Source: Escherichia phage IrisVonRoten. From it: a DNA stretch of 64,000 bases. The position numbers were made by a program, and so were the translations under genes. Shown here in pieces: positions 45,078 through 54,383 of this stretch. The stretch lies in sequence record MZ501075. The stretch is one strand, 5' to 3'. The notes under the pieces were generated by a model, which worked only from the letters and a program-made list of their open reading frames with translations, was not told the origin of the DNA and did no database searches. How positions within the stretch are numbered: the first letter of the stretch is position 1; each line of letters starts with the position of its first letter.

Positions 45078-45591
45078 ATCTCTCCGAGGGATTAAATTCA
45101 CCAAACAATTCTTTAACTCCCCTAAGGTATAGCTGATGGGCTTCTTCCGGGGTATCTCGTCTACCAAAAATATGCTGCTTTCCATCGCAGTAAGCGTAGG
45201 CCATATACCTATTACCTCGTTTTACAACTCCAGTGAATCCGGTAGAATTAGTAGAACACTTCTTATTCTTTCCATTTTCGGAATAGGTAGCCTTACGTAA
45301 ATTATCCCACAAGTTGTTTAAACTATCACCGTCTTTATGGTCGATAGTTTTATCTCCAGGATCTTCGCCTGTCTTTATAAACCAGATTATTCTATGGGCT
45401 AAGTAAGCTGTCCGCTCCCCATTTATCGTAAACTCTAACTGTCTCCCAGTTTTCATTTTGGAGCCCGCTACCTTTCCCTTCCTTGGGCCAGATAACCAAA
45501 TTAAGTCCCCAGTACTTTCGTCATACCTAAGCTTTTCTAGGATAAATTCCATAGGAGGCATTGGTTTATGCATCTTCATTAGTTGCTCCAA
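45061..45591 (-). CDS. HNH homing endonuclease with AP2-like DNA-binding domain
   Basis: 176 aa; HNH segment IDHKDGDSLNNLWDNLR; AP2-like segment STGFTGVVKRGNRYMAYAY. Confidence 0.55.
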   Translation of the reverse strand: MEQLMKMHKPMPPMEFILEKLRYDESTGDLIWLSGPRKGKVAGSKMKTGRQLEFTINGERTAYLAHRIIWFIKTGEDPGDKTIDHKDGDSLNNLWDNLRKATYSENGKNKKCSTNSTGFTGVVKRGNRYMAYAYCDGKQHIFGRRDTPEEAHQLYLRGVKELFGEFNPSERYDSEE

Positions 45592-48352
45592 GTTCGGACA
45601 TTACTTCTTCTGCCATAGCTTTCTCCTCCTCTGTCATGAATTTGAAAGGAATTGGCATACACTCTATTTTACAATAGGTTCTGTACCAGTCTACGATATT
45701 CTCCGTGTTCATATCTTTACCAATACCCATCATACCAAGATACATTCTAGCATATTTTGGGTTCGCACTCTGACCTGTTTTAAGGAAGAAGTCCTTCTTC
45801 TTACCTTTCAGAGCTTCTATGAATGGTTTAATGGTCACATTTGAACATTTCTTAATATCTTCCCAGAACATCTCGTGCATCTTATGGAAGAATGCAGCTC
45901 GATCATTCGGCTTATCTTTGATATATTGTTCAACATGCTCAACTGTTACATCTTTAATAGACTCAAGATGATAGTAGCGAACAAGAAGTAGTTTAGCTTC
46001 ATACGCATCCACATGACGTGGAGCACAATAATCCGGAGTTGAATGTAGAATAGCTTTGATTCGCTCTTCTGTGTACTCTTTACCAGCACCTTCAATAGTT
46101 CCCCAGCTTTCGCTGAAAATATCAATAGTTGCACCCTGATCAAGCAAGTAATAACGTAAGGTACTAGTATAGTTTCTAGATTCCAGCTCCCTGCGACGTG
46201 CATATAATTGCTGTGCTAACTCCAGCCAACCCTCATCAATATTATATTGTTCAGAACCTGCAGAGAATCCACTCGTAGATTTATCAATAAAATAATAGAT
46301 ATTCTGAGCACCACGGTCGCGCCTGATTGCTTGAAAACGCATGTTTGGCGCTTGATTACTAGTTCTCGTAATAACAAATACGTTATCGAAGTAGTTGAAG
46401 TCAACGCCACTCGTTACGGATGGACTACATAATAAGCAATCAATTTGTTGATCAATTAGCTCATTAGTTGTGTAATCCAGAATACGTCTAATATCCACAT
46501 CAGATGTAGAGTTTGAATGGATTTCCTTAACTAACGCACCAGTATTGCGACGTAGTGCCATACCCTTCTCATTAAGCTCATCAGGCCCACAATCAGATAC
46601 TAGAATAGATTTCTCACCCATCTCTAGAGAAGTCTGAAGTGCAACCCAAATACTGGACTCATCAGGGAACTCATAAGCATGAGCTTTTGACAGCATTTTA
46701 CGGTGATGATTGTAAAATGCTACTGGTTTATCGAACTCAATCAAAGAACCATATGCTTCAATTGTTTCAGCACTAATATCACCATCTGATAGTATAATGA
46801 TTTTTGCAGTTGCAAGAATATCACGAAGAACCTGAATACACTCACGACGTTGCTTAACAACCGGGGCGAATAATAGGTCATTCATTACTGCATCACATTC
46901 ATCTATAAAGATTGCATCAATTTGACCAATAAAACTCTTAAACTTATGCAAAGAGTGAATGGTTGTGGACATACGGTCAATAGCACCACGCTTGAAATTA
47001 AGCATATCTACAGACTTATCATATTGTCCTGCACTAAATTTCTTAGCATTTGAAGATACCAGTGCTCTAGTGTTGGTAATTGCTAAGAAATTACCTTTAA
47101 TAACTCCTGAATCCAGCCAACGAACAACAGCTGTTGTTTTACCCGTGCCTAGACTTGCTTTTACAAAAGTCATATAGCCTTCTGGTGGTACAGTATTTAA
47201 TTTCAAGAAGTTGTCGGTCTCTAGTGAATTAGTTTCTAGCTTTTTAAGGGGGATACCTTTTAATATTTCAGGGATCTCACGCTTAGAGTTATTCACAAAG
47301 GCTTTTAATGCCTGCTTCCGTCCGTTATTGAAATAATCCTGAATATTACGGCTATTATCTTTAGTTGCAATATATTCTGATAAAGCTGGGCGGATTTCTT
47401 TTTCTAGCCAACCAAAATCTACCCCATCCTCTAACGCTCGGTGATATAGCTTTGGAATAATACGTAAGTATACCCCATCATCAGCCTCTTCTAGCTCACT
47501 GATAGTTTCCTCTACTTTATCAGAGGCAGCTTTTTTACCTTTAATTTGATCGAGTAAAGAGTAGAATTCCTCTTTAAACTCTCCTCTAGTTGTTTCATAG
47601 TCAACTAGATTATTAGGTAAATTTACTTTTGAGCCTTTAACAAATACCAGACGTGAAGCACCCTCCGCTTTAAACGGATCAACTATACCATCAGTAAATA
47701 AAGGATCTGCAAAATAGTGGAGCTGTACGGAAGAGTAATAAGCTAAGTCGGCAATATCAAAGCCATACTTTTGTCTACTACTTTCGTTGATAGATGTAAA
47801 TAAGAACTTGATCTGACCCTGTGTAACTTTAACATTAGATTCTAGTATTAAGTGCATTCGGATACCTGGTTTTAGTCCAGCCGAAGACGATGCATGAGCA
47901 ATAAACCCTGCATCAAGAGGAAACATATCCTCACTAATACTATTCAACATCCTAATAATAAGACGCGCCATGCCAACAAGATCAAACTTGTTACAACCTC
48001 CTGTATCTACAATACCATCCACATCCATTGCGATTATATGACTTGGATTAGATACATTAAAGTTGCCCTTCTTACGTCGCACATTATTTTTGGGTGCAAG
48101 ACATCGACCTCGCACCGCAACGATATGAGGGTCAGACGTTAAACGTCTCATAAGAGGAAGCATTTCTACTAGGGTTTGAGGATCAACTTCGTCAATTACA
48201 TCAAACTTGAAGGGCATTGAAGCTGGTTTACCTTCAGGATGCTTTGAGGAAAATCTTTTAGCAAAAAGATAATCTTCTGCTTTAACTTCTCGCCAATTGC
48301 CTGTGGCTAAATCGCGATGAAATCCTGCATGACCTTGTAGGATTGAAAACAC
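45566..48352 (-). CDS. large replication protein: N-terminal primase-like (AEP DxD) region plus Walker A/B ATPase/helicase
   Basis: Walker A ASLGTGKTT, Walker B FIDECDAV; N-terminal IIAMDVDG (DxD); start uncertain, proposed GTG at 48352 preceded by AGGAG (track ORF begins at 48430). Confidence 0.5.
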   Translation of the reverse strand: MFSILQGHAGFHRDLATGNWREVKAEDYLFAKRFSSKHPEGKPASMPFKFDVIDEVDPQTLVEMLPLMRRLTSDPHIVAVRGRCLAPKNNVRRKKGNFNVSNPSHIIAMDVDGIVDTGGCNKFDLVGMARLIIRMLNSISEDMFPLDAGFIAHASSSAGLKPGIRMHLILESNVKVTQGQIKFLFTSINESSRQKYGFDIADLAYYSSVQLHYFADPLFTDGIVDPFKAEGASRLVFVKGSKVNLPNNLVDYETTRGEFKEEFYSLLDQIKGKKAASDKVEETISELEEADDGVYLRIIPKLYHRALEDGVDFGWLEKEIRPALSEYIATKDNSRNIQDYFNNGRKQALKAFVNNSKREIPEILKGIPLKKLETNSLETDNFLKLNTVPPEGYMTFVKASLGTGKTTAVVRWLDSGVIKGNFLAITNTRALVSSNAKKFSAGQYDKSVDMLNFKRGAIDRMSTTIHSLHKFKSFIGQIDAIFIDECDAVMNDLLFAPVVKQRRECIQVLRDILATAKIIILSDGDISAETIEAYGSLIEFDKPVAFYNHHRKMLSKAHAYEFPDESSIWVALQTSLEMGEKSILVSDCGPDELNEKGMALRRNTGALVKEIHSNSTSDVDIRRILDYTTNELIDQQIDCLLCSPSVTSGVDFNYFDNVFVITRTSNQAPNMRFQAIRRDRGAQNIYYFIDKSTSGFSAGSEQYNIDEGWLELAQQLYARRRELESRNYTSTLRYYLLDQGATIDIFSESWGTIEGAGKEYTEERIKAILHSTPDYCAPRHVDAYEAKLLLVRYYHLESIKDVTVEHVEQYIKDKPNDRAAFFHKMHEMFWEDIKKCSNVTIKPFIEALKGKKKDFFLKTGQSANPKYARMYLGMMGIGKDMNTENIVDWYRTYCKIECMPIPFKFMTEEEKAMAEEVMSELGATNEDA

Positions 48353-48853
48353 AACAATACTCCTGTGTTGGAAATGAAATAAGTTTTCTTTAGGACTATT
48401 CAGAAAGAATAGAACAACTGTTACTGTCAATTTCTCAACAAATTAATTGCAAATACTGAAGTGGGGTGGCAACTTCCACTTTCACGCTGCGCTGCTGCCT
48501 CATTATATCGCACAAATCCTTGAGGATGGCCGCTAAGCCAGATTTGCTCACCTAATGCTTCATATACTAGCTCATACTAGATGCAATATAACTTACAGAA
48601 TCACGTCTCGGTAGTTTTTCACTCCTCCCATCTCACTTCACAACCACCTCATACTAGGTTGCTTCGAGGCCTTACCAGGGTTCCTATGGGACGCAGATCG
48701 CTAAGTATTCTATTAACTATTTGTTTAAAAACTAACACGTAACAGTTAAAACAACCCTTAATGGGGCAGCCTAACTGTTCCGTATCGCGGATTGTAAACA
48801 AGAAAAATTAGTAAAACCAATTTTTACTAATGTCTCTCAATTCAATATAAATA

Positions 48854-48881
48854 TTATATCAAGATTTTGAGTATCATGCAA
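48854..48881 (-). promoter_or_regulatory. T5 early-type promoter preceding an ORF-free ~500-nt region
   Basis: minus-sense TTGCAT-N16-TATAAT with conserved downstream ATTTATATTGAATTGAGAGA. Confidence 0.4.
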
Positions 48882-48918
48882 GTAAAATTTTCCGGATGGT
48901 GCTATCAGTGTCTTTGAG

Positions 48919-48945
48919 TACAGAGAAAACCGAGCCAAAATGACT
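48919..48945 (-). terminator. putative terminator (minus strand)
   Basis: minus-sense AACCGAG-9nt-CTCGGTT followed by TTCTCTG. Confidence 0.4.
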
Positions 48946-48957
48946 CGGTTATACGGA

Positions 48958-49152
48958 TTAATCATAAAAAAGACCACGAATAGTATTAGCAAATTTAAGT
49001 ATAATAGCGCGGTTTGAGCTACTTAACTTTTTAATATCGAAAGTGGGATCAGTCAAATATCTCGCCATAAATTTTACTTGTTTAGCGGAAAGTTGACCCT
49101 TATTCCACTTTTTAATTTTACCATAACATACCCAATATTCTTTATTCATCAT
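48958..49152 (-). CDS. hypothetical small protein
   Basis: 64-aa ORF. Confidence 0.3.
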   Translation of the reverse strand: MMNKEYWVCYGKIKKWNKGQLSAKQVKFMARYLTDPTFDIKKLSSSNRAIILKFANTIRGLFYD

Positions 49153-52138: not shown

Positions 52139-54013
52139 TTATTTAGCTCGAATATCCTGATGTTTCACCCTGCCCATAACCTCGTGCTGTTTGCCGGGGT
52201 TAAATGGACGAGCACCTGGATTTCCAAGATACCCACAAACTCGACGAGTTACTTCAAGAGTTTCGGGGTCATGATTACCACAGATAGGGCACTTAAACCC
52301 ATCTTCGGATGCTACTGTTTCACCTAAGAATCCACATTTACCGCAAGAATCCACTGGAGTATTAATACCGAAGTAATGAACTTTACTAGCAGCATAATTA
52401 ATAACCCATTCCAGTGCATCTGGGAATCGTTTCATATCTGGTAGTTCTACATAGGAAATACACCCACCAGAAGCAATAGGAGTAAAGTTAGATTCATAAT
52501 CAAATTTCACGTTAGGAGCAACTTTACGTTCCACATCAAGGTGGTGAGAGTTGGTGTAGTATCCTTTGGACAGAATATCTTCATGCTCCGGGAAATATTC
52601 ACGGTCTAGACGACAAAAGCGATCACATAGGGACTCTGATGGTGTAGCATACAGGCTATAACCTAACTTAGTCTCTTCCTTCTTCTGATCGACCCTATCC
52701 CGCATGTACTGCAATACACGCTGAACAAACTTGATGCAGGTCTCAGACATTGTATCTACATCTTTGCCAAACATGAACTGTAGCATTTCATGGCAACCAA
52801 TATACCCCAGAGATACAGAAGCACGGTTATAGAAATGATCGAATACATATTCATCCGGCCCTAAGCGTAGTCCAAAGGCTCCTGACATATAGAGGATGGG
52901 TGCGGCTTTAGCTTGAATGTACTTTAAGCGATCAACTCTCCACTCCAATGCTTTTAACGCTGTATCCACACGTAGCTCGAGCAAATCAAAGAATAGATCA
53001 ATATTCCCTTCAGCTTCGATAGCAATTCTAGGCAGGTTTACAGAAACAACACCTAAGTTATTACGACCTGCAGTTTCACCATCTTCTGTAGCAGCCAGGA
53101 ATGAACGGCAGCCCATAGAAACTTTATAGTCACCAGTAACTTCCACAACCTTATCGTAGCTGATATAGTCGGGATACATACGTTCAGCAGTACATTTCAT
53201 AGCTAACTTCTTGACGTCATAATTAACATCTCCTGGCTTCATATTTACGCCATCACGCAGAACAAACACCAGTTTCGGGAAGATAGCTGTACGTTTATTG
53301 ATACCTAAACCATCCATGCGTACTTTCAGTATTGCTTTCTGTACTAGACGTGCTTCCCAAGAAGTTCCTAGACCAAAACCAAAGGTAATAAATGGACTCT
53401 GACCATTAGAGTTGAACATGGTATTGATTTCATATTCTAAACCCTGACAAGCGTCATAGACTTCTTTTTCAGTCATCTCCGTAGCCATTACGGATGCTTT
53501 GGCTTCATCCTTAGTCCAACGTTTTGCAAACGCATGATTTTTGTCATAGGATTTACGAACATAAGGGGCTAATACTTCATCAAGGCGATCTACAGAAGTA
53601 CCACCATACTGATGGGAGCTAACCTGAGTGATAATCTGAGCAGTAATAGCCGCCGCAGTAGTGATAGAGTTTGGAGTGCTAATTTCAGCATTACCAACCT
53701 TCATACCATTCTTCAACATATCTTCCAAAGCTACCAGACAACAGTTAGTCATACCTAATGCAGCATAATCAGCATCATGGAAATGAATATCTCCAATCAT
53801 ATGAGCATTTCGAATCTGAATTGGCATTTCTTCTAGAATCAGATATTTACTTAACTCCCCTGCAAGCATATCCCTTTGTGTAGGGAAACGCTCAGAGGGT
53901 TTATTCGCATTATTAAAGAGAAGCTCTTCATCAGCAGAACCCTCAATAATTTCTTTGCAGTTTCTAATCAAGGACTGCATTTCCTTGTATTTTAGTTCAT
54001 CATTGCGATTCAT
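52139..54013 (-). CDS. nrdD: anaerobic ribonucleoside-triphosphate reductase
   Basis: 624 aa; C-terminal glycyl-radical motif RRVCGYLG and Zn-site cysteines (CGKCG, CPICG). Confidence 0.9.
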   Translation of the reverse strand: MNRNDELKYKEMQSLIRNCKEIIEGSADEELLFNNANKPSERFPTQRDMLAGELSKYLILEEMPIQIRNAHMIGDIHFHDADYAALGMTNCCLVALEDMLKNGMKVGNAEISTPNSITTAAAITAQIITQVSSHQYGGTSVDRLDEVLAPYVRKSYDKNHAFAKRWTKDEAKASVMATEMTEKEVYDACQGLEYEINTMFNSNGQSPFITFGFGLGTSWEARLVQKAILKVRMDGLGINKRTAIFPKLVFVLRDGVNMKPGDVNYDVKKLAMKCTAERMYPDYISYDKVVEVTGDYKVSMGCRSFLAATEDGETAGRNNLGVVSVNLPRIAIEAEGNIDLFFDLLELRVDTALKALEWRVDRLKYIQAKAAPILYMSGAFGLRLGPDEYVFDHFYNRASVSLGYIGCHEMLQFMFGKDVDTMSETCIKFVQRVLQYMRDRVDQKKEETKLGYSLYATPSESLCDRFCRLDREYFPEHEDILSKGYYTNSHHLDVERKVAPNVKFDYESNFTPIASGGCISYVELPDMKRFPDALEWVINYAASKVHYFGINTPVDSCGKCGFLGETVASEDGFKCPICGNHDPETLEVTRRVCGYLGNPGARPFNPGKQHEVMGRVKHQDIRAK

Positions 54014-54043
54014 TATACTCTCCTTCTCTAACTAAGACTACTA

Positions 54044-54072
54044 TTATAGCTTATTCAAGGGCAAATGTCAAT
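54044..54072 (-). promoter_or_regulatory. consensus sigma70 promoter for nrdD
   Basis: minus-sense TTGACA-N17-TATAAT, then RBS GAGAAGGAGAG before the nrdD ATG. Confidence 0.6.
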
Positions 54073-54140
54073 ATAATTTTTCTCTTAGATATTGTATTTT
54101 GATCTGTGCTAAAAGGTTAGCAAATTGTTAAAAAATTTAT

Positions 54141-54169
54141 TTGCTATTTTGTACTTAAAATAGTATAAT
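54141..54169 (+). promoter_or_regulatory. T5 early-type promoter (upstream member of tandem pair)
   Basis: TTGCTA-N17-TATAAT. Confidence 0.45.
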
Positions 54170-54281
54170 CACGCGCCTATGTACGCGGTATAAAATGATT
54201 ATCTAATACCATACATTTCCCATTAAAAGCAAGCAAATTTTTTATTTAAATGCAATATCATAGGCTTATTTAAAATTGTAG

Positions 54282-54310
54282 TTGCTTTTTACTGTATATA
54301 CTGGTATAAT
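54282..54310 (+). promoter_or_regulatory. T5 early-type promoter for phoH
   Basis: TTGCTT-N17-TATAAT followed by GTAAGTTGATAAACAAG leader and RBS TAGGAG. Confidence 0.55.
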
Positions 54311-54383
54311 ATATTTGTAAGTTGATAAACAAGATCTTTTTGTTGATCCTCTGTTAGCGAAGTACACTATAGGAGTGTTATTT

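Follow-up and report, generated by a model that had tools for sequence, protein, structure and literature searches.

A candidate large structured leader RNA preceding the replication initiator gene of T5-like phages

We analysed a stretch of 64,000 nucleotides (nt) of Escherichia phage IrisVonRoten (sequence record MZ501075), called the window below, and found that the gap at 48353-48957, directly before the OBP gene of a presumed replication initiator, very probably encodes a conserved functional structured RNA. Positions are those of the window unless a related locus is named, and the local gene orientation at 48353-48957 is that of the minus strand. Judged from its sequence, the element would be best described as a new, previously undescribed large structured RNA family of T5-like phages (Demerecviridae OBP-leader RNA). 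Its main job may be the control in cis or the processing of the initiator mRNA, an assignment that we make tentatively. An earlier, sequence-only reading of the same DNA had offered a long structured leader, a small stable RNA or a cis-acting replication element. The first is supported by the course of the transcript, which in the source phage reaches the OBP start from an early promoter without meeting a terminator or an internal promoter, and by covarying, strand-specific structure. The second is wrong as worded because the element is large (~440-490 nt).

The gene-free gap, its promoter and its conservation

The source phage is a Tequintavirus. Its gap and flanks are 99.7% identical to those of Escherichia phage vB_EcoS_ESCO40, and the interval with its flanks was matched by 522 phage records. 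The locus comprises the following features (ORF, open reading frame; aa, amino acids; bp, base pairs).

48928-48950, minus strand: intrinsic terminator from the terminator scan, a 10-bp stem followed by a T-run, which ends the upstream operon
48846-48900, minus strand: T5-type early promoter with an A/T-rich upstream element and a 17-nt spacer
48881-48876 and 48858-48853, minus strand: promoter boxes, -35 (TTGCAT) and -10 (TATAAT)
48353-48957: gap between a 64-aa ORF (48958-49152) and the OBP gene
48353-48846, minus strand: whole leader RNA, 494 nt, untranslated
48345-48369, minus strand: translation initiation region, AACAC-AGGAG-N7-GUGUU
45566-48352, minus strand: OBP / 'D2 helicase' gene, 928 aa, homologue of T5.108

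The sequence-only reading had described about 600 bp free of ORFs, relatively rich in GC and transcribed from an early promoter. The gap indeed holds the largest ORF-free stretch of the window (48431-48957, 527 bp; runner-up 361 bp), as ranked from ORFs of at least 60 aa in all six frames. The mechanical OBP ORF extends to a TTG at 48430, and the GTG start is the one used in all annotated homologues. The GC content is 0.40-0.45 over 48400-48700 and 0.30 over 48700-49000; thus, the gap is GC-rich merely relative to the adjoining AT-rich stretch. It was also correct that no ORF of at least 60 aa lies in the gap. The limit of about 22 aa given for peptides was for minus-sense ATGs; when GTG and TTG starts are allowed, the minus strand has a mechanical ORF of 50 aa (48649-48801) and the plus strand one of 53 aa (48581-48742).

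These two ORFs have no ribosome-binding site, no PHROG match and no conservation. That the gap is a missed protein-coding region, with one or more small genes or the remnant of a decayed gene, is very improbable. Some phages do have mechanical ORFs of 50-60 aa, which were called by a few annotators, but no ORF in the gap is common to all lineages, and T5 and Epseptimavirus phages lack a sense ORF of 50-60 aa. The similarities between such ORFs merely track nucleotide conservation, ribosome-binding sites and PHROG families are lacking, and the substitutions follow base pairing. A conserved small protein-coding gene, named in the sequence-only reading as a finding that would count against an RNA, did not emerge: no ORF is shared and none matches a PHROG.

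The early promoter was borne out as well, for T5 records annotate the homologous sites as a terminator and early promoter T5P32 and leave the next ~470 nt blank. The generic promoter scan did not report TTGCAT-17-TATAAT because its -35 box fits at 3 of 6 positions. By analogy with the T5 promoter PN25, we take transcription to start at A 48846, which yields the 494-nt leader. The pattern AAAATTTTACTTGCA-N17-TATAATAT stands upstream of the leader in 37 scanned loci (Tequintavirus, Epseptimavirus, Klebsiella, Providencia and Pectobacterium phages). In the source phage, the scan found no terminator and no internal promoter between the leader element and the OBP start. With neither before the start codon in the source phage and T5, OBP must be translated from this leader. 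Some relatives (L017, L018, L011) use another upstream promoter, TTGCAA..TATAAT, and in Shigella phage SHSML-45 (L030, ~1860-1990) two tandem copies of promoter plus the first leader hairpin, P1, replace the terminator.

Related loci were oriented on the OBP start (32 from IMG/VR, 10 from metagenomes and 10 from phage records); the metagenome scan with an OBP profile had given 10 loci, one of them new and diverse. A strong consensus promoter followed by an untranslated stretch was present in every Tequintavirus, Epseptimavirus, Klebsiella (Sugarland-like), Pectobacterium (DU_PP_V, My1), Providencia and Proteus phage examined, and all Enterobacterales T5-like lineages in the comparison retain the order promoter, leader, OBP although the identity of the OBP N-terminus falls to 56-73%. 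The leader measures 468-494 nt in Tequintavirus, Epseptimavirus, Klebsiella and Pectobacterium phages and 519 nt in metagenome contig L049; longer forms have ~590 nt (with a 97-nt insertion), ~610 nt (Providencia) and ~760 nt (Proteus). The source leader carries the full set of the family, i.e. the early promoter, P1, GAACRGU..GGC, a closing helix, the CUUAGCGG hairpin 231-239 nt further on, and the OBP gene. Coding-poor DNA precedes OBP in Vibrio and Aeromonas relatives too, reaching 1.6 kb in Aeromonas phage TS3. The interval is unannotated in the inspected records of T5 and relatives, save for dubious small ORF calls in some, and the curators of Proteus phage Stubb remarked on 'an empty low gene density area'.

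Between the source phage and T5, identity is 95-100% over the terminator, the promoter and the leader's first ~100 nt, whereas the central ~245 nt reach 54% (shuffle baseline 48%) and the third codon positions of the adjoining OBP gene 69%. Within the diverged sequence, islands survive in all lineages: UACGGAACAGU..GGCUGCCCCA, GAGA(A/C)GUGA, GCUUAGCGGC, AAGUUGCCACCCC and CUGUUC. Each lineage that has both motifs keeps 231-239 nt between GAACRGU and GCUUAGCGG, despite the divergence of the sequence. Divergent sequence, fixed spacing and invariant islands together form the pattern of a folded RNA.

The leader core exists in two types, one in the source phage, L049, Pectobacterium and Klebsiella phages and the other in T5, Epseptimavirus and Yersinia phage phiR2-01. 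The comparison of 48458-48748 with T5 (L019) suggests recombination at the boundary of helices P2 and P3, or unusually fast evolution, because the core is so much less alike than the flanks and the OBP third positions. A further variation is an optional 97-nt insertion directly after P1 in L014 (1951-2065), L026, L036 and L114. Its site corresponds to about 48799 of the window, and the source phage has no counterpart. Across window-type, T5-type and Yersinia phiR2-01-type backgrounds, the insertion keeps 96-100% identity. It is flanked by a duplication of TTTTTCTT, contains its own hairpin and has the look of a small module that moves or recombines.

Two groups differ in the layout before OBP. 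Proteus phages RP7 (L111, 2435-2464) and Stubb (L112) have a perfect-consensus promoter just before the OBP ribosome-binding site; there, OBP mRNA can be transcribed apart from the structured RNA. Aeromonas phage vB_AdhS_TS3 (L041, 719-2308) has 1.6 kb without annotated genes before OBP. Two exact CUUAGCGG motifs lie in it, one of them within a helix of CCCGAAAA and UUUUCGGG, and at ~2180-2225 there is a terminator-like hairpin that has a T-run. This region may be a larger relative of the leader element, with which it shares a short motif.

Searches for known families gave no relative. Rfam 15 had no match in the window at gathering thresholds, and in E-value mode its sole match in the region was MicF at 48922-49009 (33.7 bits, where the threshold is 79), which is merely the terminator hairpin. 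Inside the leader of nine related loci, Rfam 15 gave no match either, and ARAGORN found no transfer RNA (tRNA) or transfer-messenger RNA in the window. The covariance-model check for Rfam and tRNA-like families, proposed with the sequence-only reading, was thus run and ended with no known family in the leader. The pattern GAACRGTYNGGC-N{220,245}-GCTTAGCGGC occurred in 30 IMG/VR contigs of 96-123 kb, all 30 overlapping T5-like OBP loci. Its 27 matches in 596 Gb of bacterial and archaeal genomes fell in unrelated taxa and were approximately as many as estimated for chance, and by this pattern the leader element appears to have no convincing counterpart in bacterial genomes. A literature search found no paper on this interval. 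The T5 'Rad' anti-retron factor is a protein encoded elsewhere, and a boxA-like antitermination site, an anti-Shine-Dalgarno motif and a T5 nick site were dropped, as none is conserved across lineages.

Helices of the leader RNA

The predicted structure is made up of the following parts, given in the order of transcription.

48800-48838, minus strand: P1, the 5' hairpin, GAGAGA.AUUAGUAAAA / UUUUACUAAU.UUUCUU, then a U-run
48751-48795, minus strand: P2 domain, with the almost invariant motif UACGGAACAGUUAGGCUGCCCCA at 48762-48784
48703-48748, minus strand: 5' strand of P3 (inverted repeats I1 and I6; duplex test)
48458-48702, minus strand: central core domain, ~245 nt, enclosed by P3
48601-48699, minus strand: core subdomain 1, stacked helices UCCCAU/AUGGGA, CUCG/UGAG and GCAACC/GGUUGU
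48571-48580 and 48648-48657: direct repeat CTCATACTAG
48509-48549, minus strand: helix Pk, GCAAAUC/GAUUUGU around the hairpin GGCU-UAGC-GGCC
48530-48537, minus strand: invariant CUUAGCGG, inside the Pk hairpin
48463-48482, minus strand: hairpin AGUGG-AAGUUGCCACC-CCACU
48415-48457, minus strand: 3' strand of P3, pairing with 48703-48748
48396-48412, minus strand: last hairpin, CUAUUC-UUUCU-GAAUAG, after the conserved CUGUUC

P1 and P2 (48838-48751) were evaluated with RNAalifold on an alignment of eight sequences, with partners slid by 1-3 columns and 500 column shuffles as controls. Compensatory changes were present in 15 of the 33 predicted pairs, compared with 2-3 in the slid controls, and 93.4% of the cells were paired (35-50% in the slid controls); 0 of 500 shuffles matched the observed pairing or covariation. 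P1 contributes 19 pairs, 10 of them compensatory among the Tequintavirus, Klebsiella and Pectobacterium lineages, and Providencia phages and L049 have hairpins of other sequence at its position. P2, which carries the almost invariant GGAACAGU..GGCUGCCCC motif (GAACAGU..GGCUGC), contributes 14 pairs with five compensatory; examples are a G-C to A-U change inside the conserved motif and a C-G to U-A change between close Klebsiella phages. A covariance model of this 5' module, R1, had exactly one match in the window (48745-48846). R1 finds only its source lineages and the insertion variants and misses L049, Providencia, Proteus, Vibrio and Aeromonas phages; hence, it is unable to set the limits of the family.

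P3 is a predicted AU/GU-rich long-range helix of 24-43 bp which encloses the ~245-nt core in seven lineages. It was assessed without an alignment, by computing the 49 duplex energies between the segments 24-84 and 315-378 nt after GAACRGU of the seven lineages. The cognate duplexes ranged from -26 to -42 kcal/mol with a mean of -33.1, whereas the non-cognate ones had a mean of -17.3 and a best value of -25.2, and the cognate pair was the best in each row and column of the 7x7 table. Relative to shuffles, the duplexes had z-scores of -2.9 to -9.2. Of 251 pairs, 44 were G.U. One compensatory replacement turns AACUGUUAC/GUAACAGUU of the source phage into AACUAUUAC/GUAAUAGUU of the T5-type phages. 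Free variation of the P3 strands with the pairing kept fits a constraint at the level of RNA rather than of DNA sequence.

The structure is also specific to one strand. The antisense P3 duplex was much weaker in six of seven lineages (in T5, -9.0 against -31.7 for sense), and the minimum free energy (MFE) of the whole leader was lower on the sense strand in 9 of 9 lineages. For the source phage, the sense MFE was -135 kcal/mol (z = -2.97), and the antisense z was -1.86. This asymmetry argues for an RNA made from the early promoter and not for a DNA cruciform or an antisense RNA. A fold of the leader constrained to the comparative helices lies just 1.8 kcal/mol above the MFE.

Within the core, helices recur at like positions relative to the anchor in nine representatives. 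Core subdomain 1, which also has a GGAGU hairpin and ends in the GAGA(A/C)GUGA motif, has 24 predicted pairs, 10 of them compensatory in six sequences. Hence, the comparison across T5-like phages proposed with the sequence-only reading found compensatory changes in the 5' module (15/33) and the core (10/24) and cognate preference in P3 (7/7). No variation was seen in CUUAGCGG among 12 sequences of nine lineages, with Providencia and Proteus among them; it forms a hairpin of 4 bp with covarying outer pairs (GG..CC, with GA..UC in My1 and GC..GG in Proteus). The helix of 8-10 bp which encloses this hairpin occurs in 9 of 9 lineages with unrelated sequences. The MAFFT alignment of this module misplaced the 3' strand because the loop lengths vary; therefore, Pk was also tested without an alignment, and the cognate duplex was the best in eight of nine rows.

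The hairpin at 48463-48482 is the AAGTGG..CCACTT of the sequence-only reading. A hairpin is present at this position in all lineages with differing stems, and the source phage has the loop AAGU(U/G)(G/A)CCACC in common with Klebsiella and Pectobacterium phages and not with T5. The last hairpin has counterparts in Klebsiella (CUAUC/GAUAG) and Providencia (CCUG/CAGG) phages; comparable ones are CUUUCC/GGAAAG in Pectobacterium phage DU_PP_V, read from the sequence, and AUACUAU/AUAGUAU in L049. The direct repeat CTCATACTAG is not clearly conserved in relatives. The hairpin (48460-48482) and the repeat that the sequence-only reading singled out are both present, and they are minor parts of a much larger conserved fold.

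That all this is a non-functional spacer, with hairpins arising from chance or composition, is scarcely credible. The z-score of the single-sequence fold is moderate (-2.97) and would be compatible with it, but length, motif spacing and helices are kept where neighbouring synonymous sites are saturated, and the compensatory changes are far above the controls.

The OBP start and the function of the leader

The OBP protein matches PHROG 3712 ('replication origin binding') over its full length, Pfam Herpes_ori_bp at residues 394-533, and the NCBIfam plasmid replication protein CyRepA1 at residues 393-708 with E = 6e-35, below the family cut-off. Its N-terminal third (residues 1-390, 47183-48352) had no Pfam, PDB-sequence or profile match, and a single-sequence AlphaFold model of this region was unusable (pLDDT, the predicted local distance difference test score, 35.6). 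This third has invariant DxD and His residues, which we take to recall primase-polymerase motifs. The T5.108 homologue was studied as the bipolar 'D2 helicase' and proposed as an initiation protein (PMC3632103).

OBP starts with GTG (48352-48350), preceded by the Shine-Dalgarno sequence AGGAG (48364-48360); most lineages have either GTG or TTG as start codon. A small predicted hairpin of 5 bp places the Shine-Dalgarno sequence in the loop and the GTG start in the stem. The base 5' of AGGAG tracks the start codon, being C with GUG, U with AUG (Klebsiella) and A with UUG (L049). These three events are suggestive of pairing of the start codon.

RNase III processes long duplexes in rRNA precursors, in the lambda N leader and in T7 early RNA. 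Predicted P3 reaches at least about two helical turns, the duplex length by which an RNase III stalk is recognised, and does so in a cognate- and sense-specific manner. The 24-43 bp closing duplex, the GTG or TTG start and the start codon in a small hairpin are the reasons for which we tentatively favour a leader that controls processing or translation. The RNA would be made as the 5' leader of the OBP/D2 helicase transcript from the strong T5 early promoter, and the element would act in cis on its own transcript. RNase III would cut the predicted P3 duplex, and folding or cutting at P3 would set the amount of translatable, stable initiator mRNA obtained from a very strong promoter, with the non-AUG, partly sequestered start holding translation low. 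The conserved unpaired motifs may be contacted by a protein or take part in tertiary structure.

Several points weigh against this proposal. The ~245-nt core and several deeply conserved unpaired motifs exceed the needs of known RNase III or stability leaders, the start-region hairpin has just 5 bp and its covariation comes from three events, and the literature search found no transcript, processing or expression data for the region. Moreover, the perfect-consensus promoter of the Proteus phages lies between the element and the OBP ribosome-binding site, and TS3 seems to have its terminator-like hairpin before OBP, which suggests that the RNA can work outside the OBP mRNA.

The same observations bear on a different role, in which the P3-closed core would be excised (e.g., by RNase III) and act in trans as a large non-coding RNA in its own right, accumulating as stable RNA or as a ribonucleoprotein; it might conceivably be a ribozyme or scaffold. 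Its function would then lie elsewhere in the infection, and synteny alone would explain why it precedes OBP. We consider this rather unlikely. In its fixed motif spacing, its invariant motifs in loops and its closing stalk, similar to the one in rRNA precursors, the leader is built like other large structured RNAs, and a very strong promoter combined with a weak, sequestered non-AUG start suggests that the RNA might be the main product. Proteus phages supply OBP with its own promoter downstream of the element, and TS3 combines 1.6 kb without ORFs, CUUAGCGG motifs and the terminator-like hairpin. However, the source phage and T5 have nothing that separates the element from the OBP start, and the Aeromonas homology rests on a short motif in a region that R1 does not find. 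The position before OBP is uninformative either way, since T5-like genomes are syntenic overall.

A cis-acting replication element had also been suggested in the sequence-only reading. In that case, the gap would be a replication-origin module, in which the early transcript serves as an RNA-DNA hybrid or primer, or the DNA offers binding sites to the adjacent initiator; we regard this as improbable. The element is directly upstream of an initiator-type helicase gene whose product has been proposed as an initiation protein (PMC3632103). It joins a promoter to ~490 nt of structured RNA with AT-rich flanks, a size like that of RNA II. In T5, the element stands at 48.5-48.9% of the genome, and the origins of the first replication round were reportedly placed near the centre by Bourguignon and colleagues in 1976.

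In contrast, recombitron editing at 5-7 sites across T5 showed a single strand preference, interpreted by the authors as dominant unidirectional replication from one genome end, which argues against a dominant central origin (PMC10055335). The GC skew does not switch at the gap, and its cumulative minimum, near 53.5 kb, lies where the gene orientation changes. Conserved iterons are missing, and the source phage has just a two-copy repeat of 10-15 nt besides short repeats at chance level. The conserved motifs are single-copy, and the P3 strands vary freely with the pairing kept. Within 48353-48957, there is no promoter-like plus-strand site for an antisense regulator, and the only such site, at 48244-48273, is within the OBP coding region. 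In the phiLLS paper, an 'origin' ~3 kb distant was assigned solely on the basis of GC skew; the corresponding skew minimum in the window is the gene-orientation switch.

A bolder version, which we think quite unlikely, would be a new class of catalytic or scaffold RNA (~450-750 nt), specific to T5-like phages, that aids the initiator helicase at the start of replication, e.g., as a structured primer or loader. If true, a classical lytic model phage would initiate its replication under the guidance of an RNA. T5 has served as a model for more than 70 years, and its replication initiation is poorly understood; the element lies in a genetically tractable E. coli phage, directly before the presumed initiator gene. 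A conserved RNA of ~490 nt without an Rfam relative would lengthen the short list of large structured bacterial and phage RNAs. As a natural leader of a strong promoter, it could also be reused in T5-promoter expression systems.

Two neighbouring features should be mentioned. The 64-aa ORF at 48958-49152 (minus) belongs to PHROG 29527, of unknown function, and sits between the T5.107 homologue and the terminator; it was found in the source phage and a few relatives, and T5 lacks it. The second-largest ORF-free stretch of the window (54014-54374) is a divergent promoter region, flanked by plus-strand genes and by the minus-strand gene 52139-54013, which is probably an nrdD homologue judging from its position in related phages. 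This stretch carries a perfect TTGACA-17-TATAAT on the minus strand (54071-54043).

Comparison with known systems

The ColE1 RNA II, the T4 oriF and oriG transcripts and those of the T7 primary origins resemble the leader in having a promoter for the host RNA polymerase and a structured non-coding transcript of ~500 nt within a replication module; in RNA II, too, evolution conserves the folding of the RNA. However, there is no sequence or Rfam relationship, the leader lacks a promoter-like site for an antisense RNA I, and its transcript runs straight into the initiator gene. The T5 strand-bias data oppose a dominant origin at the leader position, which sets it apart from the ColE1, T4 and T7 origins. 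The likeness to RNA II is limited to size and promoter arrangement.

With the RNase III stalks of the 16S and 23S precursors, the lambda N leader and the T7 R sites, the leader shares a long imperfect duplex (P3, 24-43 bp) which flanks a structured RNA or precedes a gene and whose sequence varies freely while the pairing is kept. Unlike those stalks, the predicted P3 duplex encloses a conserved multi-helix core and not rRNA.

ROOL and GOLLD, as well as OLE, HEARO and raiA, are likewise several hundred nt long, with many covarying helices, invariant motifs in loops and junctions, and a phage context. In contrast to them, the leader matches no Rfam 15 model at gathering or E-value thresholds, in the window and nine related loci, and it occurs only in Demerecviridae, always before the OBP gene and within an mRNA leader.

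Finally, in the leaders of T4 genes 32 and 43 and at the RegA sites, a replication gene is likewise preceded by structured RNA, and the region of the start codon takes part in pairing. The T4 operators measure 20-40 nt, whereas the leader described here is more than 10 times larger and has a separate core domain.

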